Assembly: GCA_039932735.1 (NCBI GenBank)
Contig: JBDTPK010000001.1
Span: 1-59,529 of the forward strand
Direction: 5' to 3'
Source of the DNA: Nitrospirota bacterium
GTDB lineage: Bacteria > Nitrospirota > Nitrospiria > Nitrospirales > Nitrospiraceae
DNA: 59,529 nucleotides
How positions within the stretch are numbered: position 1 is the first letter of the stretch; each line of letters starts with the position of its first letter. Below the pieces are notes generated by a model. The model was not told the DNA's origin. It worked only from the letters and a program-made list of their open reading frames with translations, and made no database searches. Both the position numbers and the translations under genes were made by a program. Positions 16,334-52,705 of this stretch are shown in pieces.

Positions 16334-16334
16334 T

Positions 16335-23318: not shown

Positions 23319-24715
23319 CGATTCATGTCGATGAAATATGGGAACCGATCGGGGTGACCCCACCGATAGAAAATCTCGGCGCCAATCCCTATCTGGAACG
23401 GCAAGCGTTGAGAGAGTCGAACGCGCGCAGTTATCCGCGCCGGCTGCCGCTGGCGCTCAAGAAAGGGAAAGGTATTTACGTTCAAGATACCGAGGGGAGG
23501 ACCTATATCGATTGTCTGGCTGGTGCCGGGGCATTGGTCCTCGGACACAACCATCCCGTCGTCGTCGAGGCGATCAGCCGGATGCTGCGAGACGGACTCC
23601 CGCTACAGCTGCTGGATTTGACGACGCCGCTCAAAGACCGCTTCGTCGAGAAGTTGTTCGAGTGTCTGCCGAAGAAGTTTGCCGACGGGGCAAAAATTCA
23701 GTTCTGCGGACCATCGGGAGCGGATGCGGTAGAGGCGTCGATCAAGCTGGTAAAAATCGCCCGTGCTCGACGTTCCATTCTGGGGTTTCAAGGTGCCTAT
23801 CATGGGATGACGCATGGCACGCTGGCGTTGACAGGCCATCTGGCTCCCAAAAATGCCATCAGCGGGCTCATGGCTGATGTCCATTTCTTACCCTACCCTT
23901 ATACGTATCGTTGCCCGTTCGGCGTGGGCGGTGAAGAGGGGCATCGTCTCTCCAGTGCCTATATCGAGCGGCTCTTGGACGACCCTAACAGCGGGATCGT
24001 GGAACCGGCCGGGATGATTTTGGAGGTGGTCCAGGGGGAAGGTGGCGTCATTCCGGCGTCACTCAGCTGGCTGCAGGAAATCCGCCGCATCACTCGTGAG
24101 CGTGGCATTCCGTTGATTGTCGACGAGATACAAACCGGCTTGGGGCGAACCGGTACGCTGTTCGCGTTCGAACAGGCTGACATCGTACCGGATGTCGTCG
24201 TCTTGTCCAAAGCGATCGGCGGCGGATTGCCGTTGAGCGTGGTGGTGTATCGACCTGAATTAGATCAATGGACCGCGGGGGCACACGCCGGCACATTCAG
24301 GGGCAATCAATTGGCTATGGCGACCGGGGAAGCCACCATCGATTTCATTTGCCGCGAGCATGTGGCGCTGCATGCCGCCCGGATGGGGGAACGGCTGATG
24401 AGCCACTTGCATGGGATACAGGCGAACTCACGGAGTTTCGGCGATGTGCGGGGGCGGGGCCTGATGATCGGAGTGGAAATCGTCAATACCGAAAATCCTC
24501 CGGATCAGTCTGGGGCATTTGCTGCCGCGCCGGCTGTCGCGACCAGGATCCAGCGCGAAGCGTTGCTGCGCGGCCTGATTCTGGAGCTCGGCGGGCGGAA
24601 TAACAGCGTGGTGCGGTTTCTCCCGCCCTTGATCGTCACAGCAGAACAGGTCGACACGATCGCGATGATTTTCTCCGAGGCCGTCAAGGCGGCAGAGCAG
24701 GATTGCACAGCATGA
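23315..24715 (+). CDS. Class III aminotransferase, diaminobutyrate-2-oxoglutarate transaminase type (PvdH/EctB-like)
   Basis: CGPSGADAVEASIKL, AYHGMTHGTLALTG, DEIQTGLGRTGTLFAFE, and LSKAIGGGLP with the PLP Lys. ATGA overlap with the ABC gene. Confidence 0.85.
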   Translation: MTIHVDEIWEPIGVTPPIENLGANPYLERQALRESNARSYPRRLPLALKKGKGIYVQDTEGRTYIDCLAGAGALVLGHNHPVVVEAISRMLRDGLPLQLLDLTTPLKDRFVEKLFECLPKKFADGAKIQFCGPSGADAVEASIKLVKIARARRSILGFQGAYHGMTHGTLALTGHLAPKNAISGLMADVHFLPYPYTYRCPFGVGGEEGHRLSSAYIERLLDDPNSGIVEPAGMILEVVQGEGGVIPASLSWLQEIRRITRERGIPLIVDEIQTGLGRTGTLFAFEQADIVPDVVVLSKAIGGGLPLSVVVYRPELDQWTAGAHAGTFRGNQLAMATGEATIDFICREHVALHAARMGERLMSHLHGIQANSRSFGDVRGRGLMIGVEIVNTENPPDQSGAFAAAPAVATRIQREALLRGLILELGGRNNSVVRFLPPLIVTAEQVDTIAMIFSEAVKAAEQDCTA

Positions 24716-27129: not shown

Positions 27130-27152
27130 CCGTAACCACATAAGGAGGCACC

Positions 27153-27389
27153 ATGGGAAACGACGAACGGGAAGATACGACGGTCTACAAAGTGGTGATG
27201 AATCATGAAGAGCAATATTCCATCTGGCCGTCCTACCGGGACAATCCTCTCGGGTGGACGGATGCGGGGAAGACCGGTCTCAAGCAAGAGTGCTTGAACT
27301 ACATCAAGGAGGTGTGGACGGACATGCGGCCGTTGAGTTTGCGCAAGTGGATGGCTGAACAGGTGGACAAGACGATCCCGTCATGCTGA
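27153..27389 (+). CDS. MbtH-like protein
   Basis: [26 protein letters not shown]...[17 protein letters not shown] contains the three conserved Trp residues. An aaggagg RBS is present. Confidence 0.95.
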
Positions 27390-28135
27390 CCGCTGCGCGA
27401 TCACAATCGTGGTTTGTCACCCGCCGTCAGACGGCTGGGATACGGCTGTTGTGTTTCCCCTATGCAGGCGGAGGACCCGCAGTGTTTCGCAGTTGGCCGC
27501 AATATCTTTCGCCGGATATCGAGCTCTGTGCCGTTCAGTTGCCGGGGAGAGGGGCGCGAATGAATGATGCGTCAATCGGAGAACTCCGGCGTTTGGTCGC
27601 CGAGCTGGCGGAGGTCATCGAGCCGAGTCTCGATCGGCCGATCGCGCTGTTCGGACACAGCATCGGCGGGCTGATCGCATTCGAACTTGCGCGCGAGATA
27701 CGACGGCGCTATGGCGTCGAACCGGCGCATCTTTTCGTATCGGGCTGTCCCGCGCCTCAGATTCTCGACAATGATCCGCTCTTCGATATGCCGGAGGAGG
27801 AATTCCTCGATCGCATCCGGCGATTCAACGGGACCCCATGGGAAGTGCTGGAAAATCCGGAAATGATGCAACTCGTTCTCCCTGCGCTCCGTGCGGATTT
27901 CTCGTTGCGTGATACGTATGTGCATGCCGCGGAACCTCCCTTTCGCTGTGCGATCTCGGCCTTCGGCGGCATGGACGACGAGGGTGTGGGAACAGAGAAA
28001 CTTGAGCAATGGAGAGACCATACGTCCGATGTGTTTCAATTGTGTTTGTTTCAAGGGGACCATTTTTTTCTACGGACCGCGCAAGCCGCCGTGGTCGAAT
28101 CCGTCGCCGTGACATTGCAGCGGTATGGACATTGA
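27383..28135 (+). CDS. Type II (editing) thioesterase
   Basis: [23 protein letters not shown] (GxSxG) and GDHFFL. 250 aa. Confidence 0.9.
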
Positions 28136-28244: not shown

Positions 28245-29282
28245 ATGAACAATGATCTTCGGACGGGTTGTTCCCTACCGCTTCAGTCAGGTGAGGAGAT
28301 CGACGCGAAGCTGTTGTTTTCGACGGAGTCGCTCTCCCCAGGAGTACGTCTCCCGTTGTTGATGACGGCGAGGGAGGCACGGGGATTGAGTGAATATTCG
28401 GCGGCTGCGCGTCGCGGCGCCGACAAGCACTTGTCGATTCATGGCGGCGTCCTGTTTCGAGGATTACCGGTGGCGTCGCCGTTGGACTTCGAAGCATTTG
28501 TGAGTGTCTTTACGCCCTCGATGATTTCCTATGAATTCGGATCTACACCGCGCTCGCAGGTTCATCACCAGGTCTACACGTCGACGGAATATCCTCCGCA
28601 TCAAAGTATTCCGTTGCACAACGAGCAGGCGTACACGACGGAATGGCCGATGAAGATCTGGTTTTACTGCGGCCAGGTTGCCGAAGAGGGCGGGTATACG
28701 CCCATTGCGGACAGCCGGGAGGTCTTTGCACGGATTCCGACGCGTATCCGGGAACGGTTTATCAGGAAGCAGGTGATGTATGTGCGTAATTTCGGCAACG
28801 GGCTTGATGTGCCATGGCAGAAGGTGTTCAACACCGTGGATCGTGCCGCGGTTGAACTGTATTGCCGTAAGAACAGGATCCTGTTCGAGTGGAAGCCGGA
28901 CGGCGAACTGAGGACGCGACAGATTGCGCAGGCGGTGGCGACGCATCCCAGGACTCAGGATCAGGTATGGTTCAACCAAGCGCATTTGTTTCACGTGTCG
29001 AATTTGGAACCGGCCGTGCGCGAGGCGCTCTTGTCCGCCGTGAACGAAGAGGATCTTCCGAGACACGCCTATTACGGAGACGGCTCTGCCATCGAGACCG
29101 ATATATTGGATGAAATTCGAGATGTGTATCGTTGTCTCGCGGTTCAGTTCTCCTGGCAGAAGGGAGATGTGTTGATGCTGGACAATATGTTGGCGGCGCA
29201 CGGGCGTACGCCCTTCAAGGGCCGGCGACAGATCCTGGTCGCGATGGCGGAGTCGTCGGGAGCGTCGACCGAATGCCGATGA
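28245..29282 (+). CDS. Stand-alone TauD/TfdA-family Fe(II)/2-oxoglutarate hydroxylase (SyrP-like, putative aspartyl beta-hydroxylase)
   Basis: PLHNEQAY (HxE of the facial triad), GGYTPIADSR, and LDNMLAAHGRTPF (distal His). A ggaggag RBS is present. Confidence 0.85.
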   Translation: MNNDLRTGCSLPLQSGEEIDAKLLFSTESLSPGVRLPLLMTAREARGLSEYSAAARRGADKHLSIHGGVLFRGLPVASPLDFEAFVSVFTPSMISYEFGSTPRSQVHHQVYTSTEYPPHQSIPLHNEQAYTTEWPMKIWFYCGQVAEEGGYTPIADSREVFARIPTRIRERFIRKQVMYVRNFGNGLDVPWQKVFNTVDRAAVELYCRKNRILFEWKPDGELRTRQIAQAVATHPRTQDQVWFNQAHLFHVSNLEPAVREALLSAVNEEDLPRHAYYGDGSAIETDILDEIRDVYRCLAVQFSWQKGDVLMLDNMLAAHGRTPFKGRRQILVAMAESSGASTECR

Positions 29283-32200
29283 ACGACGAAGCCGCACAAA
29301 GCGAGGCGCTGCAATCCGAGGGCGCGGAGACAGAACACTATGTGTTCCCGATGAGCTTTGCGCAGCGTCGATTGTGGTTTCTGTCGCACCTTGAGCCGGA
29401 GAGTGCATCCTATAACACAGCGATCGCCGTGCGGATACAGGGTGTGCTCGACCGGCAGGCCGTCGAGGGCGCGTTCAATGACATCGTGAGACGTCATGAA
29501 GTCTTGCGGACGACTTTCGCTTCACTGGATGGCAATCCCGTGCAGATCATCGCGGTGGAGCGGGAAGTCGATCTCAGGGTGATCACCATCGCCGGGAGCG
29601 ACGACAGGATCGAACGAGCAATCGTCGAAGAAGCACAGCATCCGTTCGATCTTTCACGCGGCCCATTGATTCGCCTGTGTTTGCTGCAGAAGCAAGAGGA
29701 GGAGCACGTCCTTGTCGTCACCCTCCATCATATTGTGTGTGACGGGTGGTCTGCGCAAATCCTGGCCCGGGAATTCGCCTTGTTGTATGCGGCCAGGATG
29801 GCCGGATCGGTGTCTCCCTTGCCGGCGTTGCCAATCCAGTATGCAGATTATGGAGAATGGCAACGGCAATGGTTGCAAGGGCCGGTGCTGGAGCGCCAGT
29901 TGGCCTATTGGACGCGCCAACTGAGCGGTGATTTGCCGGTGTTGGAACTCCCGACCGGCCGGCCGAGAACTGGAGTCCAAGCGTCGTCTGGAAGCCGGCA
30001 TACCTTTGTGGTGCCGGCGAAGGTTGCGCAGGCGCTGATCGCGCTCAGCCGCCGGGAAGGCGTGACGCTGTTTATGACGCTGCTGGCCGCCTTTCAAGTG
30101 CTCTTGCTCCGGTATACGGGAATCGACGATGTCTGTGTCGGCACGTCGGTCGCCTGCCGGACCAGACGCGAGACCGAGGATTTGATCGGCTTCTTCGCCA
30201 ATACCCTCGTCTTGCGCGCCGATCTCTCCGGGAATCCGCCGTTTTCCCGGTTGCTCGCACGGGTACGTGAGGTGGTCATCGGCGCTCAAGCGCATCAAGA
30301 CCTTCCATTCGAAGAACTGGTTGACGCGCTGAAGCCTGTGCGCGACTTGAGTCACTCTCCGTTGTTTCAGGTCATGTTCGTTCTTCAGACCACGCTGTCT
30401 CAGGCTATCAGGCTTCAGGGCCTTTCCGTCGAGATACAGGAAGTGGATATTGCCTCTGCCAAGTTCGACCTCTCGCTCGACATGGCTGAAACGGAGCAAG
30501 GACTGGAAGGCGCATTCGAGTACAACACCGACCTCTTCGAGCAATCGACGATCCTCAGAATGACGGATCAGCTGCTACGGCTGCTTCAAGGGATCGTCGA
30601 TCGCCCTGAGGCGCGTGCACACGAATTGCCGTTCATGGCGGCATCGGAATGGCATCACGTTGTGACTGAGAGTCACGGCCGAGAATCGAGTTTGCCTGTG
30701 ACTACCGGATATGCAGATTTGTTCGAGGCACAGGTGGAGAGGTGTCCCGAGGCTATTGCCGTCGTCTGTCAGGGACAGTCACTGACCTATCGGGAATTGA
30801 ATGCGGCTGCCAATCAGGTGGCACACGCACTGGGCCGAACGGGAGTGGGCGCAGAATCGATCGTGGCGGTGCTCGATCAACGCGGGATTCCCTTTTTGGC
30901 CATGTTGATCGGGGTCCTCAAGGCCGGTGGCGTTTACATGCCGCTCGATCCGACCCATCCGGTCGCGCGTTGGAGCCGACTCATTGAATTGAGCCATGCC
31001 GAGGTCGTCTTGACCACAGAGCCCTATCGGGCATGGCTGCTTGGCGCATCTTCGAGGCTGTCGCAGTCGCAAGACATTCCTGTGCTGACGATGGAACACA
31101 TCCGGGCACTGAGTGCGCCAGAATGTCATCCACCTCGACAGTCGTCGCCGGATCAACTCGCGTACGTCATCTATACGTCCGGGTCCACCGGGGTGCCGAA
31201 AGGCGCGATGGTGACGCAGCAGGGCATGGTCAATCACCTGATGAGCAAGATCGCGGTTTTGGGCTTGGATGCCCAAGCTGTCGTCGCGCAAACGGCATCG
31301 TCCTGTTTCGACATTTCGGTCTGGCAATTTCTTACGGCGCTGCTGTGCGGTGGCCGTACGTTGATTGTCCCTGACGATATCGCACGCGATCCGGCCGCGC
31401 TATTGACGTGTCTGAATGAATCGGGCGCCACGGTCGCCGAAACCGTTCCGGTGGTCCTGCAAGGCATGCTCGATACTGCAGCCGGCTCCACCGCCTATCC
31501 GTTGCACAGGCTCCGCTGGATGCTTCCGACCGGCGAGGCGCTTCCGCCGCAACTCTGCCGCAACTGGCTTCAGCAATTTCCGCACATCCCGCTGATGAAT
31601 GCCTATGGGCCGGCGGAGTGTGCCGATGATGTGGCCATGGCTCCGATCACCGTGCCTCCCGCGCGTGCGCGAATCTGCATGCCCATCGGTTTGCCCATTC
31701 AGAACGTTCGGCTCTATGTATTGGATCGATGGTTGGAACCGACGACGATTGAGGTTCCCGGCGAAATCTGTGTCGGGGGCATCGCGGTCGGGCGTGGGTA
31801 TCTACAAGACTCTGCGCGGACCGCCGAATCGTTTGTGCCTGATCCTTTCGGAAAAGACCCGGGGATGCGTCTCTATCGCACAGGTGACCGCGCGTGCAGG
31901 CGTGCCGACGGGAGTCTGGAATTTCTCGGGCGGTTCGATCACCAGGTCAAACTGCGGGGGGTGCGAATCGAGGTAGGGGAAATCGAGGCCCGTCTTCGCG
32001 AACTCCCGGGCATTCGAGACGCTGTTGTGGCCTTGCGTGAGGATTGCCCTGGGCAAAAGCGGTTGACCGCCTATGTGGTGACGTCAATCGAAGGCGACAA
32101 TCAGCGCGAATCATGGCGCGCGGCGTTGCGAATGTCTCTGCCCGACGCGATGATTCCTGCTTGCTTCGTCCTTATGGACTCGCTTCCTTGCACACCCAAC

Positions 32201-35200
32201 GGCAAGGTAGACCGGCAGTCCTTGCCCATTCCAGAACAGAAGAGCACGCGCGAATATGTGCCGCCTCGGACGGCCGTGGAGGAGGCCCTGGCTGGAATTT
32301 GGGCCGACCTTTTGGGAGTTGAGCGAGTCGGAGCAGAGGATAATTTTTTCGAGCTTGGCGGAGATTCCATCCTCAGTTTGCAGGTGGTGAGCCGCGCGAG
32401 ACAGAAAGCCATCCTGCTCACTCCTCGGCAGCTCTTCCAATATCAAACCGTTGGGGAATTGGCCGCCCATGCGTCCTCCTCATCCTTGACAACGGAGGTA
32501 TCTTCCCTGACATGGAATGCGTCCACGTTTGTCGATGAAGTCACTGCCGGCATAGTTCGGCATGCCTGCCCGGATCTGGAGGATCTCTATCCGCTGAGTC
32601 ATTTACAGCAGGGGCTGTTGTTTCATAGCGCGTATGCGCCGAAATCGGGCGTCTACATTGAGCAGATGCGCTGCCGATTGCGGGGAGCGTTGGATGGACA
32701 GGCGTTCCGCAAGGCCTGGCAGCGGCTCGTGGCCAGGCACGCGGTGCTTCGAACGAAATTCATGTGGCGGAGCGTGCCGTTACCGGTACAGATCGTAATG
32801 CCTTCGGCAGACCTCCCTTGGCTGGAACTCGACTGGCAGGAATATTCGGGCAGCGAGCAAGAGGCTCGCTTGCGACAATTTGTGCAGGAAGACCGGCGGC
32901 TCGACTTCGACTTCGAGCATCCTCCCTTGATGCGCTTGGCGCTGATCCTTGTTGCGCCGGAGATGTATGAAGTGGTCTGGACTCACCATCACATCCTCAT
33001 GGACGGCTGGTGTTTGCCGATCCTGCTGAACGAAGTTCTAACCTCCTACCAAGCGCTTCGATCCGGAGAAGAACCGGCGCAAGACCTTCCCGTTCCCTAT
33101 CGGCGTTACATTGCCTGGCTCCTGCAACAGGATCCAGGCGCTGCGGAAGCGTTTTGGCGTGCCACCCTCAAAGGTTTTACCGCGCCGACCCTGTTGGGAG
33201 GCGATGCGAAGGAGGAGGAGTCCGATGGAGTTGTGGACTACGGTGTGTTCACACTGACGATTTCGTCGACGACGACTGCAGCGATTCGGGCATGCGCCCA
33301 ACGGTGCCTTGTGACAGAAAACACGCTGGTACAGGGGGTCTGGGCGCTGTTGCTGAGTCGATACTGTGGTGAGACGGACATCGTCTTCGGCACGACGGTT
33401 TCCGGTCGTGCGGCCGAGATCCCTGGAATCGAATCGATGGTCGGTCTGTTCATCAATACGCTGCCGCTTCGTCTCTCGGTGCCGCCTGAGGCCGTCGTGC
33501 ATCAATGGTTGCGGGAGCTGCTCATGCGGAACAGCGCCCTGCGGGAGTATGAACAGACCCCTCTAGCCCAGGTTCAAGGATGGAGCGAGATGCCGCGCGG
33601 TCAATCGTTGTTCGAGAGCCTGATCGTATTCGACAATCATCCGACGGATGAAACGTTGGAGCAAGGGGCTTCCGGGCTTGTGGTAGAGCAGGCGACGCTT
33701 CAGGGACAAACGAACTATCCCTTAACTCTCAACGTGTTGCCCGGAAAGGACCTGACTGTTGCATTCTGGTATCAACGGCGGCGGTTCCATGATGATGCCA
33801 TAGCCCGTATCGCATGCCATTTTGAAGGTCTGATGACTGCGATGATCGAGACACCCCAGGCGCGCTTGTCGGCCTTACCGCTGATGGGGGCGGCGGAGCG
33901 GGCGATGGTAGTGGCGGGGTGGAACGCGACGGCGCAGGCCTATCCGACAGATCGGACGGTGCCGGAGCTGATCGCGGCGCAGGCCGCGCGGACTCCGGCG
34001 GCCATTGCGGTGCGTGATGGCGCCGGCACGCTGACCTATGGCGCATTGCTGGCGCGAGCCAACCAAGTGGCGCAGACCCTGCGGGCCCAGGGCGTCGGCC
34101 CAGAGACTCTCGTGGGGATTGCGATGGCGCGCTCCCTCGATCTGGTGGTCGGCCTGCTGGGCATCCTCCAAGCAGGCGCGTCCTACGTCCCGCTCGATCC
34201 GACCTATCCCACTGACCGGCTCGCGTTCATGCTGGCCGACAGTCAAGTGGCGGCCTTGCTGACCCACGAGGCGCTCATTGCCCCGCTGGGCTTTGCCGGG
34301 TATACCCTCTGTCTCGATCGTGACAGGACGACGATCGCCCGGCAGCCGATCACCGCGCCGCCCGGCCGATTCACCGCCTCGCAGCTGGCCTATACCATCT
34401 ATACCTCCGGCTCCACCGGCCAACCCAAAGGCGCCAGTAACACCCACGGTGGGTTGCGCAACCGCCTGCAGTGGATGCAAGAAGCCTATCCTCTGAACGC
34501 CGCCGACCGGGTGCTGCAGAAAACCCCGATCAGTTTCGACGTCTCCGTGTGGGAATTCTTCTGGCCCCTCTCGGCCGGCGCCGAACTCATCCTGGCCGCG
34601 CCGGAGGAACACAAAGACCCGGCGGCATTGATCGCCCGCATCGTGAGCGCGGGCGTGACCACGCTGCATTTCGTGCCGCCGATGCTGCAGGCGTTCCTCG
34701 ACAGTCCCGGCGTCGCGCGCTGCACCTCGCTCCGGCAGATCATCTGTAGCGGCGAAGCTCTGCCGGCGTCCCTGCCGCCACGGGTGGCGGCCCAGTGGCC
34801 GACCGTCCGGCTGCACAATCTCTATGGCCCCACGGAAGCGGCTATCGACGTGACGGCCTGGACCTGTCCGCAGACCCCTGAGATCAGCACCGTGCCCATA
34901 GGCCGGCCGATCGCCAACACGCAGATCTATGTGCTCGATCCACAGGGCCAGCCGGTGCCGGTGGGGGTGCCGGGCGAGCTCTATATTGGTGGGGTCGGGG
35001 TGGCGCGGGGGTATCACCGCCGCCCGGCGCTCACCGCCGAGCGGTTCGTGCCTGATCCGTTCAGCGCGTCCGCGGGGCAGCGCCTCTATCGCACCGGCGA
35101 CCTCGTCCGGTTCCGGGCGGATGGCGTGCTCGACTATCTGGGACGTCTGGACCATCAAGTCAAGATCCGAGGATTCCGGATCGAGCTGGGCGAGATCGAA

Positions 35201-35809
35201 CAGACATTACGGCAGCAACCGGGCGTGCGCGAGGCGGTGGTGGTGGCGCGGGCGGAAACGTCGGGGACGACGCGGCTCGTGGGCTATGTGACAACCGACG
35301 CGGGTACCGCAATTGAGAATGGGAGGTTGCAGCAGGGGCTGGCGCGCCGGTTGCCTGAGTACATGGTGCCGGCCGCGATCGTGCTGTTGGAGGAGCTGCC
35401 GTTGAGTCCGAACGGCAAGGTGGACCGCAAGGCGTTGCCGGCGCCGGACGCCGAGCGCCAGCGGACGACGGCCTATGAGGCGCCGCAGACGGAGCCGGAG
35501 CAGACCTTGGCGGCGATCTGGGCCCAGGTGCTCGGGCTCCCCCGAATCGGCCGCTACGACAACTTCTTTGAACTCGGCGGCGATTCGATCAACAGCCTGC
35601 AGATCCTGGCGCGAGCCCATCAAACAGGAATCCAATTGACGCCGAAGCAACTCTTCGACAACCCAACGATTGCGTCTGCTGCCGCTGTTGCGGTAATCGG
35701 CAGCGTGACAATGGAAGGATTCTTGTCGGACGCCGGCGCCCCAACTCGTATTGCGGATGTGGAACTGACGGATGACGACATGCAGAGCTTATTGGAAGAA
35801 ATCGGGTAG
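29279..35809 (+). CDS. NRPS 1: C(LCL)-A-T-C(DCL/dual type)-A-T
   Basis: C1 HHIVCDGWS; A1 code read as DIWELTADDK; T1 FFELGGDSIL; C2 YPLSHLQQGLLFH...HHHILMDGWC; A2 code read as DVWHISLIDK (Ser-like); T2 FFELGGDSIN. ATG 29279 overlaps the TauD stop. The ORF-track start at 29132 overlaps the TauD gene by 150 nt. Confidence 0.95.
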   Translation: MNDEAAQSEALQSEGAETEHYVFPMSFAQRRLWFLSHLEPESASYNTAIAVRIQGVLDRQAVEGAFNDIVRRHEVLRTTFASLDGNPVQIIAVEREVDLRVITIAGSDDRIERAIVEEAQHPFDLSRGPLIRLCLLQKQEEEHVLVVTLHHIVCDGWSAQILAREFALLYAARMAGSVSPLPALPIQYADYGEWQRQWLQGPVLERQLAYWTRQLSGDLPVLELPTGRPRTGVQASSGSRHTFVVPAKVAQALIALSRREGVTLFMTLLAAFQVLLLRYTGIDDVCVGTSVACRTRRETEDLIGFFANTLVLRADLSGNPPFSRLLARVREVVIGAQAHQDLPFEELVDALKPVRDLSHSPLFQVMFVLQTTLSQAIRLQGLSVEIQEVDIASAKFDLSLDMAETEQGLEGAFEYNTDLFEQSTILRMTDQLLRLLQGIVDRPEARAHELPFMAASEWHHVVTESHGRESSLPVTTGYADLFEAQVERCPEAIAVVCQGQSLTYRELNAAANQVAHALGRTGVGAESIVAVLDQRGIPFLAMLIGVLKAGGVYMPLDPTHPVARWSRLIELSHAEVVLTTEPYRAWLLGASSRLSQSQDIPVLTMEHIRALSAPECHPPRQSSPDQLAYVIYTSGSTGVPKGAMVTQQGMVNHLMSKIAVLGLDAQAVVAQTASSCFDISVWQFLTALLCGGRTLIVPDDIARDPAALLTCLNESGATVAETVPVVLQGMLDTAAGSTAYPLHRLRWMLPTGEALPPQLCRNWLQQFPHIPLMNAYGPAECADDVAMAPITVPPARARICMPIGLPIQNVRLYVLDRWLEPTTIEVPGEICVGGIAVGRGYLQDSARTAESFVPDPFGKDPGMRLYRTGDRACRRADGSLEFLGRFDHQVKLRGVRIEVGEIEARLRELPGIRDAVVALREDCPGQKRLTAYVVTSIEGDNQRESWRAALRMSLPDAMIPACFVLMDSLPCTPNGKVDRQSLPIPEQKSTREYVPPRTAVEEALAGIWADLLGVERVGAEDNFFELGGDSILSLQVVSRARQKAILLTPRQLFQYQTVGELAAHASSSSLTTEVSSLTWNASTFVDEVTAGIVRHACPDLEDLYPLSHLQQGLLFHSAYAPKSGVYIEQMRCRLRGALDGQAFRKAWQRLVARHAVLRTKFMWRSVPLPVQIVMPSADLPWLELDWQEYSGSEQEARLRQFVQEDRRLDFDFEHPPLMRLALILVAPEMYEVVWTHHHILMDGWCLPILLNEVLTSYQALRSGEEPAQDLPVPYRRYIAWLLQQDPGAAEAFWRATLKGFTAPTLLGGDAKEEESDGVVDYGVFTLTISSTTTAAIRACAQRCLVTENTLVQGVWALLLSRYCGETDIVFGTTVSGRAAEIPGIESMVGLFINTLPLRLSVPPEAVVHQWLRELLMRNSALREYEQTPLAQVQGWSEMPRGQSLFESLIVFDNHPTDETLEQGASGLVVEQATLQGQTNYPLTLNVLPGKDLTVAFWYQRRRFHDDAIARIACHFEGLMTAMIETPQARLSALPLMGAAERAMVVAGWNATAQAYPTDRTVPELIAAQAARTPAAIAVRDGAGTLTYGALLARANQVAQTLRAQGVGPETLVGIAMARSLDLVVGLLGILQAGASYVPLDPTYPTDRLAFMLADSQVAALLTHEALIAPLGFAGYTLCLDRDRTTIARQPITAPPGRFTASQLAYTIYTSGSTGQPKGASNTHGGLRNRLQWMQEAYPLNAADRVLQKTPISFDVSVWEFFWPLSAGAELILAAPEEHKDPAALIARIVSAGVTTLHFVPPMLQAFLDSPGVARCTSLRQIICSGEALPASLPPRVAAQWPTVRLHNLYGPTEAAIDVTAWTCPQTPEISTVPIGRPIANTQIYVLDPQGQPVPVGVPGELYIGGVGVARGYHRRPALTAERFVPDPFSASAGQRLYRTGDLVRFRADGVLDYLGRLDHQVKIRGFRIELGEIEQTLRQQPGVREAVVVARAETSGTTRLVGYVTTDAGTAIENGRLQQGLARRLPEYMVPAAIVLLEELPLSPNGKVDRKALPAPDAERQRTTAYEAPQTEPEQTLAAIWAQVLGLPRIGRYDNFFELGGDSINSLQILARAHQTGIQLTPKQLFDNPTIASAAAVAVIGSVTMEGFLSDAGAPTRIADVELTDDDMQSLLEEIG
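33862..35589 (+). repeat. Copy 1 of a 1,728-bp perfect direct repeat (A domain plus start of T domain)
   Basis: Offset 6,528 nt to copy 2. All lines I compared are identical, and ORF-track translations in five frames are identical. Identity starts in the C-A linker and ends 2 nt after the carrier Ser codon. Confidence 0.9.
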
Positions 35810-35824
35810 AGGATTTACGCGAAC

Positions 35825-38800
35825 ATGATCGATGCATTGAAGGCCGATTCGACCAAGGACGGCGCCGCAAAACATATCGAAGCCATTTACCAGCTCTCGC
35901 CGATGCAGGAAGGCATGCTGTTCCACACGCTGATGAATCCAGGAACGGGCATTTATCTGATGCAGAACCGGTATTACGTGGAGGGAGACGTGGATGCCGC
36001 GGTCTTTCGTCTGGCGTGGGAACAGGTGATCGCGCGTCATTCGATCTTGCGCACGTCCTTTGTGTGGAAGAGTCAAAAGCGTCCGCTGCAGGCTGTGCAC
36101 AAACAGGTAGAAGTTCCTCTCGATGTGATGGATTGGCGTGGAACTGATCGGGTGGAACAAATCACCCGTCTTGACGCCCTGTTGCAAAGCGAACTGGAAA
36201 CAGGATTCGACTTTGCCAAAGCACCGTTGATGCGATTGCGTCTAATTCGCTTGACCGATCACACGTATCAGTTCGCCCACAGTTTTCATCATATTCTTTT
36301 AGATGAATGGTGCATTTCGCCGCTGCTCATGGATTTTCTGGCTCATTATGAAGCCTGTGCCCAGGGACGGGACTGCCAGGCAGATAAGCCGCGCCCCTAT
36401 CGGGACTACATCGCATGGCTGCAAAAGCAGGACTTGGAGACTGCGCAAACATTTTGGCGCGACTATCTCCGTGATTTCCCGACGCCCACGCCGCTGGCGT
36501 ACGACCGACTGCCGGAAGGTCTCGCCGATCAGAATGAAGACGCAGCGGATCATTGCGTCCATCTGAACGCCGATACGACAGCGGCGCTGGTCTCATTGGC
36601 CCAACGGCATCGACTGACGCCGAACACGTTCGTGCAAGGCGCATGGGCGATCCTCTTGAGTTATTACAGCGGTGATCAGGACATTCTGTTCGGTGTGACC
36701 GTCGCCGGCCGACCGCCAGGCCTGCTGGGTGTGGAATCCGTGCTCGGGCTGTTCATCAATACACTTCCCCTACGCGTAAGGGTTTCGCCGGACCGTCACT
36801 TCCTTCCGTGGCTCACAGATCTGATGGCGGAGAATATTCGGCTGCGGGAGTTTGAATACACGCCACTCGTCCAGATTCAGCGCTGCAGCGAAGTCCCGCG
36901 GGGAGAAGCGCTGTTTCACAGCCTGTTTGTCTTCGAGAATGCGCCGGTCGATCCCGCGCTCTTCGAAGGCCGGATCATGTTTCGCGCCGAAGAAGAACAA
37001 TACAGGGTTCATACCAACTACCCCATGACGGTGATGGGATGGCCGGGGAAAGAACTGGGACTGAAACTGTCCTATGACCGTCAGCTGTTCGATTCGGAAA
37101 CGGTCGTCAGAATGATCGGACATTTGAAGCGGTTGCTGGAAGCGATGGTGCAGCAGCCTGACGCGCGAATCGGCGAATTGCCGCTGCTCGGACAGGATGA
37201 ACGCGCACAGCTATTATCGACCTGGGTCGAGACGGCAACGCAGGAGCCGGACGACAGGAGTTTCAATGTCCGGTTCGAAGAACAGGTCCGACGGGCGCCG
37301 CATTCGTCAGCGGTTTCCTGCCGGGGCGAAGCCTTGAGTTATTGCGAACTGAACCGGCGGGCCAACCGCCTGGCCCACGCCTTGGTGTCGACGGGGGTCG
37401 GCCCTGAATCCATCGTCGGCCTGCTGGACGAACGAAGCCCCGCTCTCCTCGCGATGATCGTGGGTGTATTCAAAGCCGGCGGCGCCTATCTTCCGCTGGA
37501 TCCTCATCATCCCACGTCGCGTCTGGTGCGTGTTCTCGAACTAAGTCGGGTAGCGGTGCTCGTGACGTCGGCGGGACTGTTCGAGCGGATGACTCTAGCA
37601 TTAGCTTCCATGCCGCCGGAATCTCGCCCCCGCCTGTTGTCGCTGGATACCGTATTGGCTGAACCGGGCCTCGAGTATGATCTTCCGACACGCGCGCGTC
37701 CGGAACATCTCGCCTATGTCATTTACACGTCCGGCTCGACCGGCGTTCCCAAGGGAGCAATGGTCACGCAAGGCGGCATGCTCAACAACATGTCGAGCAA
37801 ACTCTCGTCCTTGCCCATCTCCTCGACAGACGTCATCGCGCAGACGGCATCGCAATGTTTTGATATTTCAGTCTGGCAATTTCTGACGGCGCTCTTGTCC
37901 GGCGCACGTACGCATATCGTGCCCGACGAGATCGTCCGCGATCCCGCCAAGCTGCTGCCGCATCTTGAAGAGGCGGGGATTAGTGTTTTCGAGACCGTTC
38001 CCGCCCTTCTACAGGCGTTGCTGGAGTCCGGCCGCGCGATGGCTTCGCCGCCCGCTTTGTCCAGGCTCCGCTGGGTCTTGCCGACGGGCGAAGCTCTGCC
38101 ACCGGCATTATGTCGTCAATGGTTCGTGCAGTATCCGCAGATTCCCCTGATGAACGCGTATGGACCGGCGGAATGTGCCGATGATGTCGCGGTGTATCCG
38201 ATCCTGACCGCTCCTCCCGAGGATCTCCCCCGTGTTCCGATCGGACGCGCGATCCCCAACATCCGGCTCTATATTGTGAATACGTGTCTCTCGCCGGTTC
38301 CGGTCGCGGTGCCGGGAGAGCTGTGTATCGGAGGCATCGGTGTCGGGCGAGGATATTTGCATGATCCGGCGCGCACCGCCGAATCGTTCGTGCCCGATCC
38401 CTTCTGGAAGGAACAGGGAGCGCGGCTGTACCGCACGGGCGATCTGGCGCGATATCGGCGAGACGGCACGATCGAGTACTTGGGACGCTTGGATCATCAA
38501 GTCAAAATCAGGGGATTTCGGATCGAACTCGGTGAAATCGAGACCCATCTGAACCGGCATCAATCTGTTCGAGAAGCCGTGGTCGTGGTGCGCGAAGATC
38601 GGTCGGGAGACCGGCGATTGGTCGCCTATATCGTCAATCGTGAAACGGAGCCGGCCGATGCCGCCGCCTTGCGGCAGTTTCTGGAGGCCCAGCTACCTGA
38701 ATATATGGTTCCCGCGTTGTTCGTGCAGCTCGACACGTTGCCGCGGACCGTCAACGGGAAAGTAGACCGTCGGGCTTTGCCGGCTCCCGGCGCCGATGAT

Positions 38801-41800
38801 CACCTTGCACAGCGCTACGTCGCGCCCCGCACGACGACGGAGGAGTTGTTAGCCGGCATGTGGGTGAACATTCTTGCTGTGGATCGTGTGGGAGTACACG
38901 ACCATTTCTTCGAGCTAGGGGGACATTCGCTGCTCGCGACTCAAATCGTGTCGCGAATCCGTAGCGCCTTTCATATCGAGCTGCCACTCAGGACCCTGTT
39001 CGATGCTCCCACGGTGTCGGAGCTAGCCGAAGCCGTGGACGAGATGCGGGCAAAAGGGGTCGGAGCGCAACCTCCATCGATAGTTCCCGTCCCCAAGGAA
39101 GGACCGCTCCCACTTTCATTTGCACAACAGCGGCTTTGGTTTTTGACGCAACTGGAACCGGATAGCTGGTTCTATAACCTCGCCTTCGGTATTCGAGTGG
39201 CCGGTCCGCTGGACGTCGCAGCATTGCAGGCGAGTTTTGACGCCGTGGCTCGTCGTCACGATATGTTGCGCACGATATTTACGGCGAACGATGGGCGGCC
39301 GTCGCAGATGATCGATGAATCTCTGCCGACTCCCTTCGTCTGTATATCCACGACACCCTCGGTCGACGGCGATATGGAGCAGGAGGTACAGCGGCTGGCC
39401 GCCGAAGAAGCCCGGCACGCATTCAAGATCGAAGGCGGGTTGCTGTGGCGGGCGCGATTATTTCAACTGAATGTGCAGGATCATGTCTTGATGGTGACAC
39501 TGCACCATGTCATCGCCGACGGCTGGTCTCTGAATCTCTTGCTGGCCGATATGATCTCCTCATACGTTGCATTGCAGGCTGGCCAGCCGTCTCCGCTCCC
39601 GTCTCCGCGACTGCAGTATGTCGACTATGCACAGTGGCAGCGTGGGTGGCTCGCCGGGGAGGTGCTAGAGCGGCAGCTCGATTACTGGAAACAGGCACTC
39701 AGTGGGGCTCCCGCCGTCCTGGCATTGCAGACCGATCATCCTCGTCCGTCCGTGCAAACGTTTCACGGCGCTCGGCAGTCCATCACGATATCGCCCACCT
39801 TGACGGCCGGGCTGCACACCGTCGGTAGGCGGCAAGAGGCGACATTGTTCATGACCTTGTTGGCGGCATTTCAGGTGCTGTTGCATCGATATAGCGGAGA
39901 AACCGATCTCTCGATCGGTACGCCGATTGCGAATCGGACCAGCCTTGAGACGGAGGATCTCATCGGGTTCTTCGTCAACACGCTGGTCCTCCGGACCGAT
40001 CTCGTTGGTAATCCGCGCTTCATCGACCTGTTGGACCGTGTCCGGGAGGTCGTTCTGGGGGCACAGAGTCATCAGGATCTGCCGTTCGAGCATATCGTCG
40101 ATGCCTTGCGTCCGACCCGCGATTTGAGCCATTCACCGCTCTTCCAGGTGATGTTTGCCCTTCAAACACTGGCTCCTCAGACGCTCGACCTCCCGGATCT
40201 GAAACTTGAGATGCTCGAGATTGATCCTGGCAGCGCCAAGTTCGATCTGTCGTTGGAAATGACGCTTGAGCCGGACGGACTCACGGGGTTTTTCGAGTAC
40301 AACACGGATTTGTTCGAGGCTGTCACCATTGTTCGGATGGCCGGTCATTTTCAAACTCTTTTGGAAGCGATCGTGGTACAGCCTGAACAGCGCTTGTCGG
40401 CCTTACCGCTGATGGGGGCGGCGGAGCGGGCGATGGTAGTGGCGGGGTGGAACGCGACGGCGCAGGCCTATCCGACAGATCGGACGGTGCCGGAGCTGAT
40501 CGCGGCGCAGGCCGCGCGGACTCCGGCGGCCATTGCGGTGCGTGATGGCGCCGGCACGCTGACCTATGGCGCATTGCTGGCGCGAGCCAACCAAGTGGCG
40601 CAGACCCTGCGGGCCCAGGGCGTCGGCCCAGAGACTCTCGTGGGGATTGCGATGGCGCGCTCCCTCGATCTGGTGGTCGGCCTGCTGGGCATCCTCCAAG
40701 CAGGCGCGTCCTACGTCCCGCTCGATCCGACCTATCCCACTGACCGGCTCGCGTTCATGCTGGCCGACAGTCAAGTGGCGGCCTTGCTGACCCACGAGGC
40801 GCTCATTGCCCCGCTGGGCTTTGCCGGGTATACCCTCTGTCTCGATCGTGACAGGACGACGATCGCCCGGCAGCCGATCACCGCGCCGCCCGGCCGATTC
40901 ACCGCCTCGCAGCTGGCCTATACCATCTATACCTCCGGCTCCACCGGCCAACCCAAAGGCGCCAGTAACACCCACGGTGGGTTGCGCAACCGCCTGCAGT
41001 GGATGCAAGAAGCCTATCCTCTGAACGCCGCCGACCGGGTGCTGCAGAAAACCCCGATCAGTTTCGACGTCTCCGTGTGGGAATTCTTCTGGCCCCTCTC
41101 GGCCGGCGCCGAACTCATCCTGGCCGCGCCGGAGGAACACAAAGACCCGGCGGCATTGATCGCCCGCATCGTGAGCGCGGGCGTGACCACGCTGCATTTC
41201 GTGCCGCCGATGCTGCAGGCGTTCCTCGACAGTCCCGGCGTCGCGCGCTGCACCTCGCTCCGGCAGATCATCTGTAGCGGCGAAGCTCTGCCGGCGTCCC
41301 TGCCGCCACGGGTGGCGGCCCAGTGGCCGACCGTCCGGCTGCACAATCTCTATGGCCCCACGGAAGCGGCTATCGACGTGACGGCCTGGACCTGTCCGCA
41401 GACCCCTGAGATCAGCACCGTGCCCATAGGCCGGCCGATCGCCAACACGCAGATCTATGTGCTCGATCCACAGGGCCAGCCGGTGCCGGTGGGGGTGCCG
41501 GGCGAGCTCTATATTGGTGGGGTCGGGGTGGCGCGGGGGTATCACCGCCGCCCGGCGCTCACCGCCGAGCGGTTCGTGCCTGATCCGTTCAGCGCGTCCG
41601 CGGGGCAGCGCCTCTATCGCACCGGCGACCTCGTCCGGTTCCGGGCGGATGGCGTGCTCGACTATCTGGGACGTCTGGACCATCAAGTCAAGATCCGAGG
41701 ATTCCGGATCGAGCTGGGCGAGATCGAACAGACATTACGGCAGCAACCGGGCGTGCGCGAGGCGGTGGTGGTGGCGCGGGCGGAAACGTCGGGGACGACG

Positions 41801-43690
41801 CGGCTCGTGGGCTATGTGACAACCGACGCGGGTACCGCAATTGAGAATGGGAGGTTGCAGCAGGGGCTGGCGCGCCGGTTGCCTGAGTACATGGTGCCGG
41901 CCGCGATCGTGCTGTTGGAGGAGCTGCCGTTGAGTCCGAACGGCAAGGTGGACCGCAAGGCGTTGCCGGCGCCGGACGCCGAGCGCCAGCGGACGACGGC
42001 CTATGAGGCGCCGCAGACGGAGCCGGAGCAGACCTTGGCGGCGATCTGGGCCCAGGTGCTCGGGCTCCCCCGAATCGGCCGCTACGACAACTTCTTTGAA
42101 CTCGGCGGCGATTCGATTCTCGCGCTGCAAGTGATCTCTCAAGCGAAACAGGAGGGTTTCTCACTCACGCCACGGCACCTGTTCCAGCACCAGACCATTG
42201 CGGAACTCTGCACGGCAGAAGATATCGAGAAGCACGTCGCCAGGCAAATTCATGCGGAGCAGGGGATTGTCACGGGAGCATTGACCGTCACTCCTGTGCA
42301 ACAGTGGTTTTTCGAACAAGACCTGCCGAATCCGCACCATTGGAATCAATCCATTCTGGTTACGGTGCAGAATTCTCTCGACCAATCAGCCTTGGAATGT
42401 GCGGTGGACCATGTTCTTGCGCATCACGATATCCTGCGAGCGCGCTTTTCCAAAAGAGCTGCCTGGAGCCAGAGGATCGACACGCCGCAAAACGGCACAA
42501 CGATTCCTCGCATAGATCTCTCCCAGTTGCCGGAAGGTCGGCAAGCGGAGGCTCTGGCATCCAGCGCGAGCGAATATCAGCGGAACCTTCATCTGGAGCA
42601 AGGTCCTATTTTTCAAGTCGTGAGGTTCGATTTCGGAGAAACTCGTCCGGCCAGACTGTTGCTGATCGCGCATCATCTGGTCATCGACGGCGTGTCATGG
42701 CGAATTATTTTAGAAGATCTTCAGACGGCCTATGTGCAACAGCAGGAAGGATGGTCCATCCGCCTCCCGGGAAAGACCAGTTCGTACAAGCAATGGGCAG
42801 AACGAATGCAGACCTTCGCTCAGTCAGACACGCTCCGGCATGAACTCGAATATTGGGATCATCCTGGAAGACGGGTGTCTTCACCGGTTCCAGTTGACCA
42901 TCCTGAGGGCGACCGGATGGAGCAGACGGTAGAGGCGATCGCATGCTCGCTCACTGAAGATGAGACGGAAGCCTTATTGCGGAATGCCCCCGCTGCCTAT
43001 CAGACACAGATCAACGACCTCCTGCTGACGGCGCTGGTCCAGACCTTCACGGGCTGGACGGGCAGTGACCGGCTGCTTATCGACCTTGAAGGACATGGGC
43101 GCGAAGATCTTTTTCCAGATCTGGATCTGTCCCGAACCGTCGGATGGTTTACGAGTATCTATCCGGTTGCCCTCACGCTCCCGCAAGGATCCCTAGGGAA
43201 TGTGTTAAAGAGCATTAAGGAACAGCTGCGAAAAATTCCCTCTGGCGGAGTCGGGTATGGGGCTCTCCGATATCTGGAATCCTCCGCCGGCGCGGACCGG
43301 TTGCGAACTCAATTGCCGGCACAGGTCTGCTTCAACTATCTGGGCCAACTCGACCAAGGTGTCGTCGATCGTCGCCTCTTCGCGCTCGCGCACGAATCGA
43401 CCGGAAGCGAACATGCTCCGGATAATCCAATGCGGTACGAATTGACGATCAGCGCGGAGATTGCGGAGGGGAAACTGGGCATGACGTGGAGCTACAGCGG
43501 CGCGCGCTATCGACGGACGACCATTGAGAGGCTCAGTGCGTCCTATCAGTCACATCTGCGGATATTGATTGCCCATTGTCTCTCGATCGACGCCGGAGGC
43601 TATACGCCGTCTGATTTTCCGGATGTTGATATCGAACAGGACGCCCTCGACGCAATTCTAGAGAAAGTGGAACGGAGCCATGCGCAATAG
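35825..43690 (+). CDS. NRPS 2: C(DCL-type, HHxxxDE)-A-T-C(LCL)-A-T-E
   Basis: C1 YQLSPMQEGMLFH...FHHILLDEWC; A1 code DIWELTADDK; T1 FFELGGHSLL; C2 HHVIADGWS; A2 identical to NRPS 1 A2; T2 FFELGGDSIL; E domain (TPVQQWFFE...HHLVIDGVSWRI). Confidence 0.95.
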   Translation: MIDALKADSTKDGAAKHIEAIYQLSPMQEGMLFHTLMNPGTGIYLMQNRYYVEGDVDAAVFRLAWEQVIARHSILRTSFVWKSQKRPLQAVHKQVEVPLDVMDWRGTDRVEQITRLDALLQSELETGFDFAKAPLMRLRLIRLTDHTYQFAHSFHHILLDEWCISPLLMDFLAHYEACAQGRDCQADKPRPYRDYIAWLQKQDLETAQTFWRDYLRDFPTPTPLAYDRLPEGLADQNEDAADHCVHLNADTTAALVSLAQRHRLTPNTFVQGAWAILLSYYSGDQDILFGVTVAGRPPGLLGVESVLGLFINTLPLRVRVSPDRHFLPWLTDLMAENIRLREFEYTPLVQIQRCSEVPRGEALFHSLFVFENAPVDPALFEGRIMFRAEEEQYRVHTNYPMTVMGWPGKELGLKLSYDRQLFDSETVVRMIGHLKRLLEAMVQQPDARIGELPLLGQDERAQLLSTWVETATQEPDDRSFNVRFEEQVRRAPHSSAVSCRGEALSYCELNRRANRLAHALVSTGVGPESIVGLLDERSPALLAMIVGVFKAGGAYLPLDPHHPTSRLVRVLELSRVAVLVTSAGLFERMTLALASMPPESRPRLLSLDTVLAEPGLEYDLPTRARPEHLAYVIYTSGSTGVPKGAMVTQGGMLNNMSSKLSSLPISSTDVIAQTASQCFDISVWQFLTALLSGARTHIVPDEIVRDPAKLLPHLEEAGISVFETVPALLQALLESGRAMASPPALSRLRWVLPTGEALPPALCRQWFVQYPQIPLMNAYGPAECADDVAVYPILTAPPEDLPRVPIGRAIPNIRLYIVNTCLSPVPVAVPGELCIGGIGVGRGYLHDPARTAESFVPDPFWKEQGARLYRTGDLARYRRDGTIEYLGRLDHQVKIRGFRIELGEIETHLNRHQSVREAVVVVREDRSGDRRLVAYIVNRETEPADAAALRQFLEAQLPEYMVPALFVQLDTLPRTVNGKVDRRALPAPGADDHLAQRYVAPRTTTEELLAGMWVNILAVDRVGVHDHFFELGGHSLLATQIVSRIRSAFHIELPLRTLFDAPTVSELAEAVDEMRAKGVGAQPPSIVPVPKEGPLPLSFAQQRLWFLTQLEPDSWFYNLAFGIRVAGPLDVAALQASFDAVARRHDMLRTIFTANDGRPSQMIDESLPTPFVCISTTPSVDGDMEQEVQRLAAEEARHAFKIEGGLLWRARLFQLNVQDHVLMVTLHHVIADGWSLNLLLADMISSYVALQAGQPSPLPSPRLQYVDYAQWQRGWLAGEVLERQLDYWKQALSGAPAVLALQTDHPRPSVQTFHGARQSITISPTLTAGLHTVGRRQEATLFMTLLAAFQVLLHRYSGETDLSIGTPIANRTSLETEDLIGFFVNTLVLRTDLVGNPRFIDLLDRVREVVLGAQSHQDLPFEHIVDALRPTRDLSHSPLFQVMFALQTLAPQTLDLPDLKLEMLEIDPGSAKFDLSLEMTLEPDGLTGFFEYNTDLFEAVTIVRMAGHFQTLLEAIVVQPEQRLSALPLMGAAERAMVVAGWNATAQAYPTDRTVPELIAAQAARTPAAIAVRDGAGTLTYGALLARANQVAQTLRAQGVGPETLVGIAMARSLDLVVGLLGILQAGASYVPLDPTYPTDRLAFMLADSQVAALLTHEALIAPLGFAGYTLCLDRDRTTIARQPITAPPGRFTASQLAYTIYTSGSTGQPKGASNTHGGLRNRLQWMQEAYPLNAADRVLQKTPISFDVSVWEFFWPLSAGAELILAAPEEHKDPAALIARIVSAGVTTLHFVPPMLQAFLDSPGVARCTSLRQIICSGEALPASLPPRVAAQWPTVRLHNLYGPTEAAIDVTAWTCPQTPEISTVPIGRPIANTQIYVLDPQGQPVPVGVPGELYIGGVGVARGYHRRPALTAERFVPDPFSASAGQRLYRTGDLVRFRADGVLDYLGRLDHQVKIRGFRIELGEIEQTLRQQPGVREAVVVARAETSGTTRLVGYVTTDAGTAIENGRLQQGLARRLPEYMVPAAIVLLEELPLSPNGKVDRKALPAPDAERQRTTAYEAPQTEPEQTLAAIWAQVLGLPRIGRYDNFFELGGDSILALQVISQAKQEGFSLTPRHLFQHQTIAELCTAEDIEKHVARQIHAEQGIVTGALTVTPVQQWFFEQDLPNPHHWNQSILVTVQNSLDQSALECAVDHVLAHHDILRARFSKRAAWSQRIDTPQNGTTIPRIDLSQLPEGRQAEALASSASEYQRNLHLEQGPIFQVVRFDFGETRPARLLLIAHHLVIDGVSWRIILEDLQTAYVQQQEGWSIRLPGKTSSYKQWAERMQTFAQSDTLRHELEYWDHPGRRVSSPVPVDHPEGDRMEQTVEAIACSLTEDETEALLRNAPAAYQTQINDLLLTALVQTFTGWTGSDRLLIDLEGHGREDLFPDLDLSRTVGWFTSIYPVALTLPQGSLGNVLKSIKEQLRKIPSGGVGYGALRYLESSAGADRLRTQLPAQVCFNYLGQLDQGVVDRRLFALAHESTGSEHAPDNPMRYELTISAEIAEGKLGMTWSYSGARYRRTTIERLSASYQSHLRILIAHCLSIDAGGYTPSDFPDVDIEQDALDAILEKVERSHAQ
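40390..42117 (+). repeat. Copy 2 of the 1,728-bp perfect direct repeat
   Basis: See copy 1 (33862..35589). Confidence 0.9.
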
Positions 43691-52697: not shown

Positions 52698-52705
52698 GAA
52701 GATTC

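Follow-up and report, generated by a model that had tools for sequence, protein, structure and literature searches.

We describe a pair of identical DNA segments in the genome of a Nitrospirota bacterium (GenBank assembly GCA_039932735.1, contig JBDTPK010000001.1), within a stretch of 59,529 nucleotides (nt) that was analyzed as a whole and is called the window below. Two neighboring genes for nonribosomal peptide synthetases (NRPSs), here N1 and N2, each contain in their second module a block of 1,728 nt, which encodes an adenylation (A) domain of predicted serine type, preceded by part of the linker that joins it to the condensation (C) domain and followed by the first half of a thiolation (T) domain. 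From a comparison with the same region in related genomes, we consider it very probable that the two copies have been kept identical by long-running concerted evolution via recurrent intrachromosomal gene conversion. On this reading, zero mismatches are what a pair in this cluster family ordinarily shows and do not mark a unique recent event.

Direct comparison of copy 1 (positions 33862–35589, forward strand, N1 module 2) with copy 2 (40390–42117, forward strand, N2 module 2) gave 0 mismatches over 1,728 nt, with the copies 6,528 nt apart. No longer run without a mismatch exists at that offset, and mismatches resume directly outside it (33861 and 35590). A repeat finder recovered the same family, and a k-mer scan found the pair to be the sole exact direct repeat of at least 25 nt in the 59.5-kb window. 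A first-pass annotation of this DNA had claimed perfect identity over these very positions and had suggested comparing the window with itself; that comparison bears the claim out, with no scattered mismatches. The codon frame of the block starts at 33863, and the codon phase is the same in N1 and N2. The specificity code of its A domain, extracted by alignment, is DVWHISLIDK, which we take to be close to the published serine codes of the DVWHLSLIDK type. Between the copies lie 4,800 nt of unique sequence (35590–40389, forward strand), comprising the remaining half of the T domain in N1, the tail of this gene up to its stop codon, a 15-nt spacer, and the C-A-T-C part of N2 with an A domain of diaminobutyrate (Dab) type; this sequence and one copy together make a unit of 6,528 nt.

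The surroundings of the two copies are clearly different, as had also been noted in the first-pass annotation. The left flank of copy 1 (32369–33861, forward strand) holds the end of the first T domain of N1 and its second C domain (N1_C2, DCL clade), and shows no relation to that of copy 2 (38930–40389, forward strand), which holds the end of the first T domain of N2 and its second C domain (N2_C2, LCL type); N1_C2 and N2_C2 belong to different subtypes and share 27% protein identity. The right flank of copy 1 (35590–35806, forward strand) consists of a T-domain second half that is specific to this paralog (INSLQILARA...) and a C-terminal tail, both kept in N1 orthologs, and the right flank of copy 2 (42118–43687, forward strand) consists of a different T-domain second half (ILALQVISQA...) and an epimerization (E) domain (HHLVIDG), both kept in N2 orthologs. 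When the pair was compared in 50-nt windows, identity dropped from 100% to 24–60% at both edges in every genome treated below that has the pair. Functional similarity has not had the same effect elsewhere in the cluster: the three Dab-type A domains share one code (DIWELTADDK) yet have only 56–58% nucleotide and 50–55% protein identity, and they use different codons at 57–61% of their shared residues, in agreement with the synonymous differences reported at first pass.

Both edges of the block lie where the first-pass annotation had placed them. On the left, identity begins within the C-A linker, where the sequence encodes RLSALPLMG, at a distance of 19 codons ahead of the WNAT motif; on the right, it stops two bases past the serine codon of FFELGGDS in the T domain. 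The right edge falls directly after GGDSI in six of six genomes examined (the window and five others), beyond which N1 orthologs share a common T-domain second half (INSLQIL..., ITSLQVL...) and N2 orthologs have their own (ILALQVI..., ILSLQII...). The left edge shifts by a few codons between genomes, staying in the C-A linker. A sharp switch of evolutionary history inside the FFxxGGxS motif of T domains, with the second half of the T domain tracking the downstream C domain, has been described by Bozhuyuk et al. (bioRxiv 10.1101/2022.12.02.518901). The right edge is therefore a known natural breakpoint of NRPS recombination, and selection for a good match to the downstream partner plausibly holds it in place. 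On the left, the edge is the point where homology ends, the upstream C domains being of different subtypes.

Repeat pairs in related genomes

Homologous regions were taken from Nitrospira sp. MA-1 (L082), a metagenome contig of the Joint Genome Institute (JGI; L083), a Nitrospirales metagenome-assembled genome (MAG; L084), the complete genome of Nitrospira sp. KM1 (L085; AP022671.1), two further Nitrospira assemblies (L086 and L087), the complete genome of Nitrospira japonica (L088; LT828648.1), and three species-representative contigs (L002, L003, and L004). Relative to the window, the regions of MA-1, L083, and L084 are collinear and have approximately 81–84% nucleotide identity; KM1, L086, and L087 are more distant, their serine blocks being 64–72% identical to that of the window at the protein level. 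The two copies within one genome are 100% identical over 1,728 nt in the window, 1,729 nt in MA-1, 1,738 nt in L083, 1,711 nt in KM1, and 1,751 nt in L087. In L086, they are 100% identical over 1,631 nt and have 5 mismatches confined to the first 75 nt of the pair, a small count for which sequencing error is possible. In L084, identity of the pair is 99.5%. A near-identical pair was found in all genomes that have separate N1 and N2 genes and serine at both positions, except for the more distant L004.

The same block compared between genomes shows only 68–90% identity overall and 52–82% at third codon positions, and the blocks of the six other assemblies differ from that of the window by 10–32%. 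Because third codon positions are 99–100% identical within genomes and only 52–82% between genomes, selection at the protein level cannot explain the homogenization. Between genomes, the block diverges at the same pace as the flanking domains. In a neighbor-joining tree built from the block's amino-acid sequences, each copy groups with the other copy from its own genome; the apparent exception, the N1 copy of KM1, was a mis-extracted sequence, and the two KM1 copies are identical over the 1,711 nt given above. The L084 pair has 8 substitutions between its copies, all in the first 855 nt and 5 of the 8 at third codon positions, some of which may be sequencing errors; this pattern, small as the counts are, is suggestive of a partial tract, in which the 3′ half would have been converted more recently.

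The first-pass annotation had read the repeat as the footprint of a very recent gene conversion or A-domain replacement. Gene conversion stands as the reading of the footprint, whereas a one-off recent event does not fit the six other assemblies with pairs of 99.5–100% identity. We regard it as very improbable that the state of the window results from a single very recent replacement or conversion in this one genome, which might have altered the residue incorporated by N2 module 2. Zero mismatches over 1,728 nt with sharp edges are what such an event would leave, and L002 and L003 do carry a different A domain, of Dab type, at N2 module 2. However, the six other assemblies, with blocks that are 10–32% off that of the window, have the same identity within each genome, the same right edge, and nearly the same left edge; in L002 and L003 the whole C-A-T-E module differs and not the block alone; and in L004 both positions are of serine type and share the specificity code of the window block. 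The last conversion event in the lineage of the window was certainly recent, but it was one of many.

Another matter to be checked is whether the identity could have been produced by the assembly process. Short reads cannot span an exact repeat of 1.7 kb, and loop-shaped assembly graphs are often written out twice, which erases small differences; one consensus might therefore have been pasted twice over a single copy or over two clearly different copies. In addition, no full-length N2 protein is present in the independent Logan assembly of a strain with 99.3% identity: its contig L001 (run ERR15880130) matches window positions 20315–27715 at 99.27% (54 mismatches in 7,401 nt) and ends before the repeat is reached, and a partial N2 product, guessed to start at the repeat end, was not found for this close strain. 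We nevertheless give the assembly explanation very little credence, since the structure recurs in seven assemblies from different projects, including the closed genome of the isolate KM1 and contigs of 0.6–1.8 Mb. In L084, three 1-nt gaps in G/C runs break the frame of the N1 copy only, in addition to the 8 substitutions; these copy-specific gaps indicate that the two copies were assembled independently, and they are still 99.5% identical. The junctions on both sides of the block are in frame, and the domain orders are complete and conserved. The near-identity is real; absolute perfection in each of the short-read assemblies is less firm.

We propose the following course of events for the preferred reading, concerted evolution by gene conversion. 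The two blocks would be paralogous units, each an A domain plus the first half of a T domain, of one siderophore assembly line of Nitrospira. In an ancestor of the sampled Nitrospira, one copy would have overwritten the other, after which the copies were similar enough to keep recombining, and homologous recombination between direct repeats about 6.5 kb apart would have kept them identical. Each substitution arising in one copy would be either passed to the other or erased, so that the pair diverges between species and stays identical within a genome. The tract presumably cannot spread outward because its flanks are too different to pair, the C domains being of different subtypes, and because the second halves of the T domains are held paralog-specific, presumably to fit the downstream partner; this partner would be the C domain on the next protein for N1 and the E domain in the same protein for N2. 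A crossover between the copies, in place of a conversion, would delete two modules and leave an in-frame N1::N2 fusion, and N. japonica most likely carries one.

A variant of this scheme, that each lineage has independently re-imported the N1 block into N2, or the reverse, under selection, seems to us highly unlikely. The right edge fixed to the base and the maintained paralog-specific T halves do indicate that selection shapes the survivors. Selective re-import, however, would still be gene conversion in mechanism, and identity at synonymous sites needs no benefit once the copies recombine. The Dab-type A domains, which have one shared code, are not homogenized, and this argues that sequence similarity and not sameness of function drives the process.

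Other states of the cluster family

In the complete genome of N. japonica, a single gene with the domain order C-A-T-C-A-T-E (10001–17914 of the extracted region) stands in place of N1 and N2. Comparison with L087 (3432–17866) showed 89.6% identity, which is unbroken to the end of copy 1 of L087 and resumes from the start of its copy 2, and the single block of N. japonica matches both copies of L087. What is missing relative to L087 is exactly one repeat unit of 6,512 nt, and the N. japonica protein is collinear with a hybrid made of N1 as far as the block and of N2 for everything after the first T-domain half. The first-pass annotation had pointed out that the repeat could serve as a substrate for deletion of the two intervening modules, and had recommended looking for a deletion variant among related strains; N. 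japonica, lacking just this unit, is most likely such a case. Any deletion between the copies is in frame because the codon phase of the block does not differ between the two genes. The tree of every segment shows L087 and N. japonica as sisters, and the inter-repeat unit of L087 is as diverged from the other genomes as the rest of the L087 cluster is; these two observations together make it most likely that the unit was present in the common ancestor and was lost in the line of N. japonica. N. japonica is thus most likely a two-module deletion derivative, the direction of the change being inferred.

Two other genomes have a different module at one of the positions. L002 (11942–19867) and L003 (10651–18579) carry at N2 module 2 a Dab-type C-A-T-E module instead of the serine module, and compared with the window this module has 55–61% nucleotide identity, the whole of C-A-T-E being different and not just the block. 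Their N1 is 81–83% identical to that of the window at the protein level over its whole length, the serine block included, and the rest of their N1 and N2 is 80–89% identical to the window, except for the block of the first A domain of L002 N2 (66%). By similarity of N1, L002 and L003 fall among the repeat-bearing genomes, and the history of the family therefore includes further module exchanges. L003 is labeled as a Nitrosospira MAG, and the other relatives are all Nitrospira; this label may be a binning error. L004, a distant Nitrospiraceae MAG, has serine at both positions, and its copies (3469–4900 and 9998–11428) are about 74–78% identical, the similarity beginning at the same point of the C-A linker and fading after approximately 1,430 nt. 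Its N2 ends after the T domain and has no E domain. L004 and L002/L003 are candidates for states that have escaped homogenization, by divergence and by a different module, respectively.

Several points weigh against concerted evolution by gene conversion as it is presented here. Gene conversion was not directly observed, and the recombination mechanism is inferred from patterns of identity; a short-read assembly with a perfect pair could hide a few collapsed single-nucleotide polymorphisms; and the direction of the change in N. japonica, loss as opposed to gain, rests on parsimony and midpoint rooting. The diverged serine pair of L004 and the Dab module of L002 and L003 show that the homogenized state is not universal, and the placement of L002 and L003 among the repeat-bearing genomes points to module exchanges beyond the scheme given above. 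Lastly, the raised G+C content of the block at third codon positions (GC3), treated in the next section, is also found in single-copy genomes, so that conversion alone is no explanation for it.

One cluster family displays several repeat-related states: homogenized pairs, a pair with few differences, and a probable loss of two modules by crossover; the diverged pair of L004 and the Dab module of L002 and L003 may be further stages. A prediction open to experiment is that the siderophores of N. japonica and KM1 differ by two residues, that of N. japonica being the shorter. For genome mining, these results carry the caution that a perfect internal repeat in NRPS genes is not necessarily recent.

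Cluster architecture, specificity, and base composition

The window is a lipopeptide-siderophore cluster of Nitrospira, and the nearest relatives of this cluster are all Nitrospira or Nitrospirales. Upstream are genes for FecR, two TonB proteins, a TonB-dependent receptor, and a PepSY protein; after these iron-uptake genes come a loading NRPS with an acyl-AMP ligase, a polyketide synthase, an ABC exporter, a class-III aminotransferase, and a PvdQ-like acylase, followed by MbtH, a thioesterase, and a TauD-family gene, with the four large NRPS genes N1–N4 downstream. N1 (29132–35809, forward strand) has the order C-A(Dab)-T-C(DCL clade)-A(Ser)-T, lacks an E domain, and ends in a short C-terminal tail; its true start is probably near 29.3 kb, the first approximately 50 codons of the open reading frame being unconserved. 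N2 (35825–43690, forward strand) has the order C(DCL clade, HHILLDE)-A(Dab)-T-C(LCL)-A(Ser)-T-E. An origin of N1 and N2 by tandem duplication of a bimodule is ruled out by the C domains, which are 26% (N1_C1 and N2_C1) and 27% (N1_C2 and N2_C2) identical and differ in subtype in both pairs. A genome-mining study has listed the N. japonica cluster as one for a predicted novel beta-hydroxy-aspartate siderophore.

Some further features of the cluster were recorded in passing. An inverted repeat of 106 nt (6–110 and 10436–10540; 92% identical) brackets the FecR, TonB, TonB-dependent receptor, and PepSY genes and ends just upstream of the first NRPS gene. A perfect palindrome of 36 nt (6495–6530), which could be a terminator or operator, precedes the TonB-dependent receptor gene (6581–9073) by about 50 nt. 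The first C-like domain of N4 (approximately 52694–54000, at the N-terminus) has no HHxxxDG motif and might be a non-catalytic member of the C family adjoining an Asp module; the cluster also has a TauD-type hydroxylase. The active site of N2_C1 (36287–36307) reads HHILLDE, and that of N3_C2 (N3 residues approximately 1060–1557) reads HHILTDD. The third NRPS of L083 (17856–25721) has 2,621 amino acids (aa), compared with 3,001–3,015 aa in the window, MA-1, L084, KM1, and L086 and 2,983–2,987 aa in L087 and N. japonica; L083 also has a TauD gene between its third and fourth NRPS genes, and is a further architectural variant in the family.

The codes of the serine blocks extracted from the window, L002, L003, and L004 are all DVWH[I/F]SLIDK, and by these predicted specificities no change of specificity is tied to conversion. 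As to stereochemistry, the first-pass annotation had placed the block in an L context in N1 and in a D context in N2; N2 does have an E domain after the block, and N1 has none. The C domain that receives the serine of N1, N2_C1, belongs to the DCL clade and groups with N3_C1, which follows an E domain; its best matches among solved structures are McyB, PvdL, TycB, BacC, and SrfA-C (E values 1e-129 to 1e-71), with the LCL domain of TycC at 1e-27. N2_C2 is of LCL type, with Txo1/Txo2 and TycC as its best solved-structure matches. Dual E/C domains are defined by a second, N-terminal His motif, HH[I/L]xxxxGD (Rausch et al. 2007), and DCL-clade domains with L-L activity are known. This motif had no match in any NRPS of the window, N2_C1 having LFHTLMNPGTGIY at the place, and N2_C1 is accordingly not classed as a dual E/C domain. 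All T domains of the cluster that contain GGDSI precede an E domain or a C domain of the DCL clade. Those with GGHSL precede an LCL domain in all cases in which the window holds a C domain after them. The clade of N2_C1 and these pairings hint at a D context at both serine positions, the DCL-type acceptor favoring D over L for N1; the missing dual E/C motif and the known L-L activity of some DCL-clade domains, however, weigh on the other side.

The block is richer in G+C than its surroundings, with a G+C content of 0.68 and a GC3 of 0.83, compared with approximately 0.58 and 0.66 in the flanks. The excess of GC3 over the adjacent C domain is +0.07 to +0.21 in every relative, including the single-copy ones; two-copy genomes range from +0.07 to +0.21 and single-copy or diverged genomes from +0.075 to +0.11, so that the ranges overlap. 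An outside donor for the block could not be identified, the best match beyond the cluster family having 56% protein identity. A foreign origin was rejected, given the G+C excess in all relatives and close homologs in this cluster family only; an import, if there was one, would have to be ancient.

The excess may be due to GC-biased gene conversion. A wider interpretation, which we regard as unlikely, is that the identical pair of A domain and half T domain is more than a passive result of recombination and acts as a built-in hinge for length polymorphism of the siderophore assembly line among Nitrospira populations, the GC3 excess being the footprint of GC-biased conversion. Crossover at the hinge would remove two modules (Dab-Ser) or add two, and conversion would keep the hinge intact over the long term. 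If this were true, the pair would be a natural and long-lived switch of siderophore structure, useful, for example, under pressure from siderophore piracy, and the GC-biased conversion would be a rare localized case in bacteria that spans a genus-level radiation.

Comparison with known systems

The edges of the block invite comparison with the exchange units (XU and XUT) of NRPS engineering. The right edge inside FFELGGDS is the site of the XUT breakpoint. The left edge precedes WNAT by 19 codons and so belongs to the C-A linker, which also holds the XU fusion point, presumably located at WNATE. The block, composed of the C-A linker, the A domain, and the T domain's first half, has the left border of XU and the right border of XUT, and it is neither of the published units. 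It can be regarded as a natural experiment on an exchangeable NRPS segment: the same unit stands behind two subtypes of C domain and precedes two types of partner (a C domain that belongs to a separate protein and an E domain in cis) in at least seven genomes of deep divergence. The coincidence of its edges with engineering fusion sites lends these sites independent evolutionary support.

The block was also compared with the repeats known as GRINS, which are defined as duplicated regions of more than 500 bp with more than 80% identity to another region of the cluster and with mean |GC skew| and |TA skew| both above 0.15, calculated in 150-nt windows with a 30-nt step (Nivina et al. 2021, PMC8256042); they occasionally occur in NRPS modules (PMC8256042). 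In length and identity (1,728 nt, 100%) the block falls within this definition. Its mean |GC skew| is 0.130 and its mean |TA skew| 0.116, compared with 0.082 and 0.111 in the rest of N1–N3, and these values below 0.15 rule it out as a GRINS; the two skews of the block show no correlation (r = −0.14). The two have in common a long (more than 500 bp), highly similar repeat in assembly-line genes that is tied to gene conversion, and they differ in that the block is marked by raised G+C and not by skew.

Concerted evolution of NRPS and polyketide synthase domains has been reported for the daptomycin, A54145, and CDA lipopeptides, syringopeptin, and mycolactone by Medema et al. (2014, PMC4256081), in whose model small divergence and internal recombination alternate and keep duplicated units "trapped" until a larger sequence change lets them escape. 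As in that work, paralogs within a cluster are closer to each other than orthologs between clusters are, and the window and its relatives correspond to the trapped state. The present case differs in that a single pair and not a whole module set is involved, in that identity is perfect at the nucleotide level with edges defined to the base, and in that the pair can be traced across seven genomes with near-saturated synonymous sites, together with a matching deletion variant.

In microcystin synthesis, replacement between the A domains of mcyB1 and mcyC has reportedly taken place. Intragenomic recombination of A domains also changes the product in the wollamide/desotamide system (Booth et al. 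2022, PMC9205934). These systems resemble the Nitrospira block in that A-domain DNA recombines within one genome with sharp breakpoints. They differ in that part of an A domain is swapped there and specificity is changed, whereas the Nitrospira block comprises a whole A domain and half of a T domain, has one serine-type code in all copies from which a code was extracted, and homogenizes rather than diversifies.

Outside assembly lines, tufA/tufB and the ribosomal RNA (rRNA) operons are the familiar parallels: conversion of RecA type keeps these dispersed repeats nearly identical over long times, and they also give rise to deletions. Concerted evolution of duplicated genes in bacteria has reportedly been reviewed by Santoyo and Romero in 2005. 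Unlike tufA/tufB and the rRNA operons, the Nitrospira repeat is an internal segment of two genes, whose unrelated flanks must stay different. The process itself is already known for assembly lines, and the Nitrospira pair is a new and unusually clean example of it, spread over multiple genomes.

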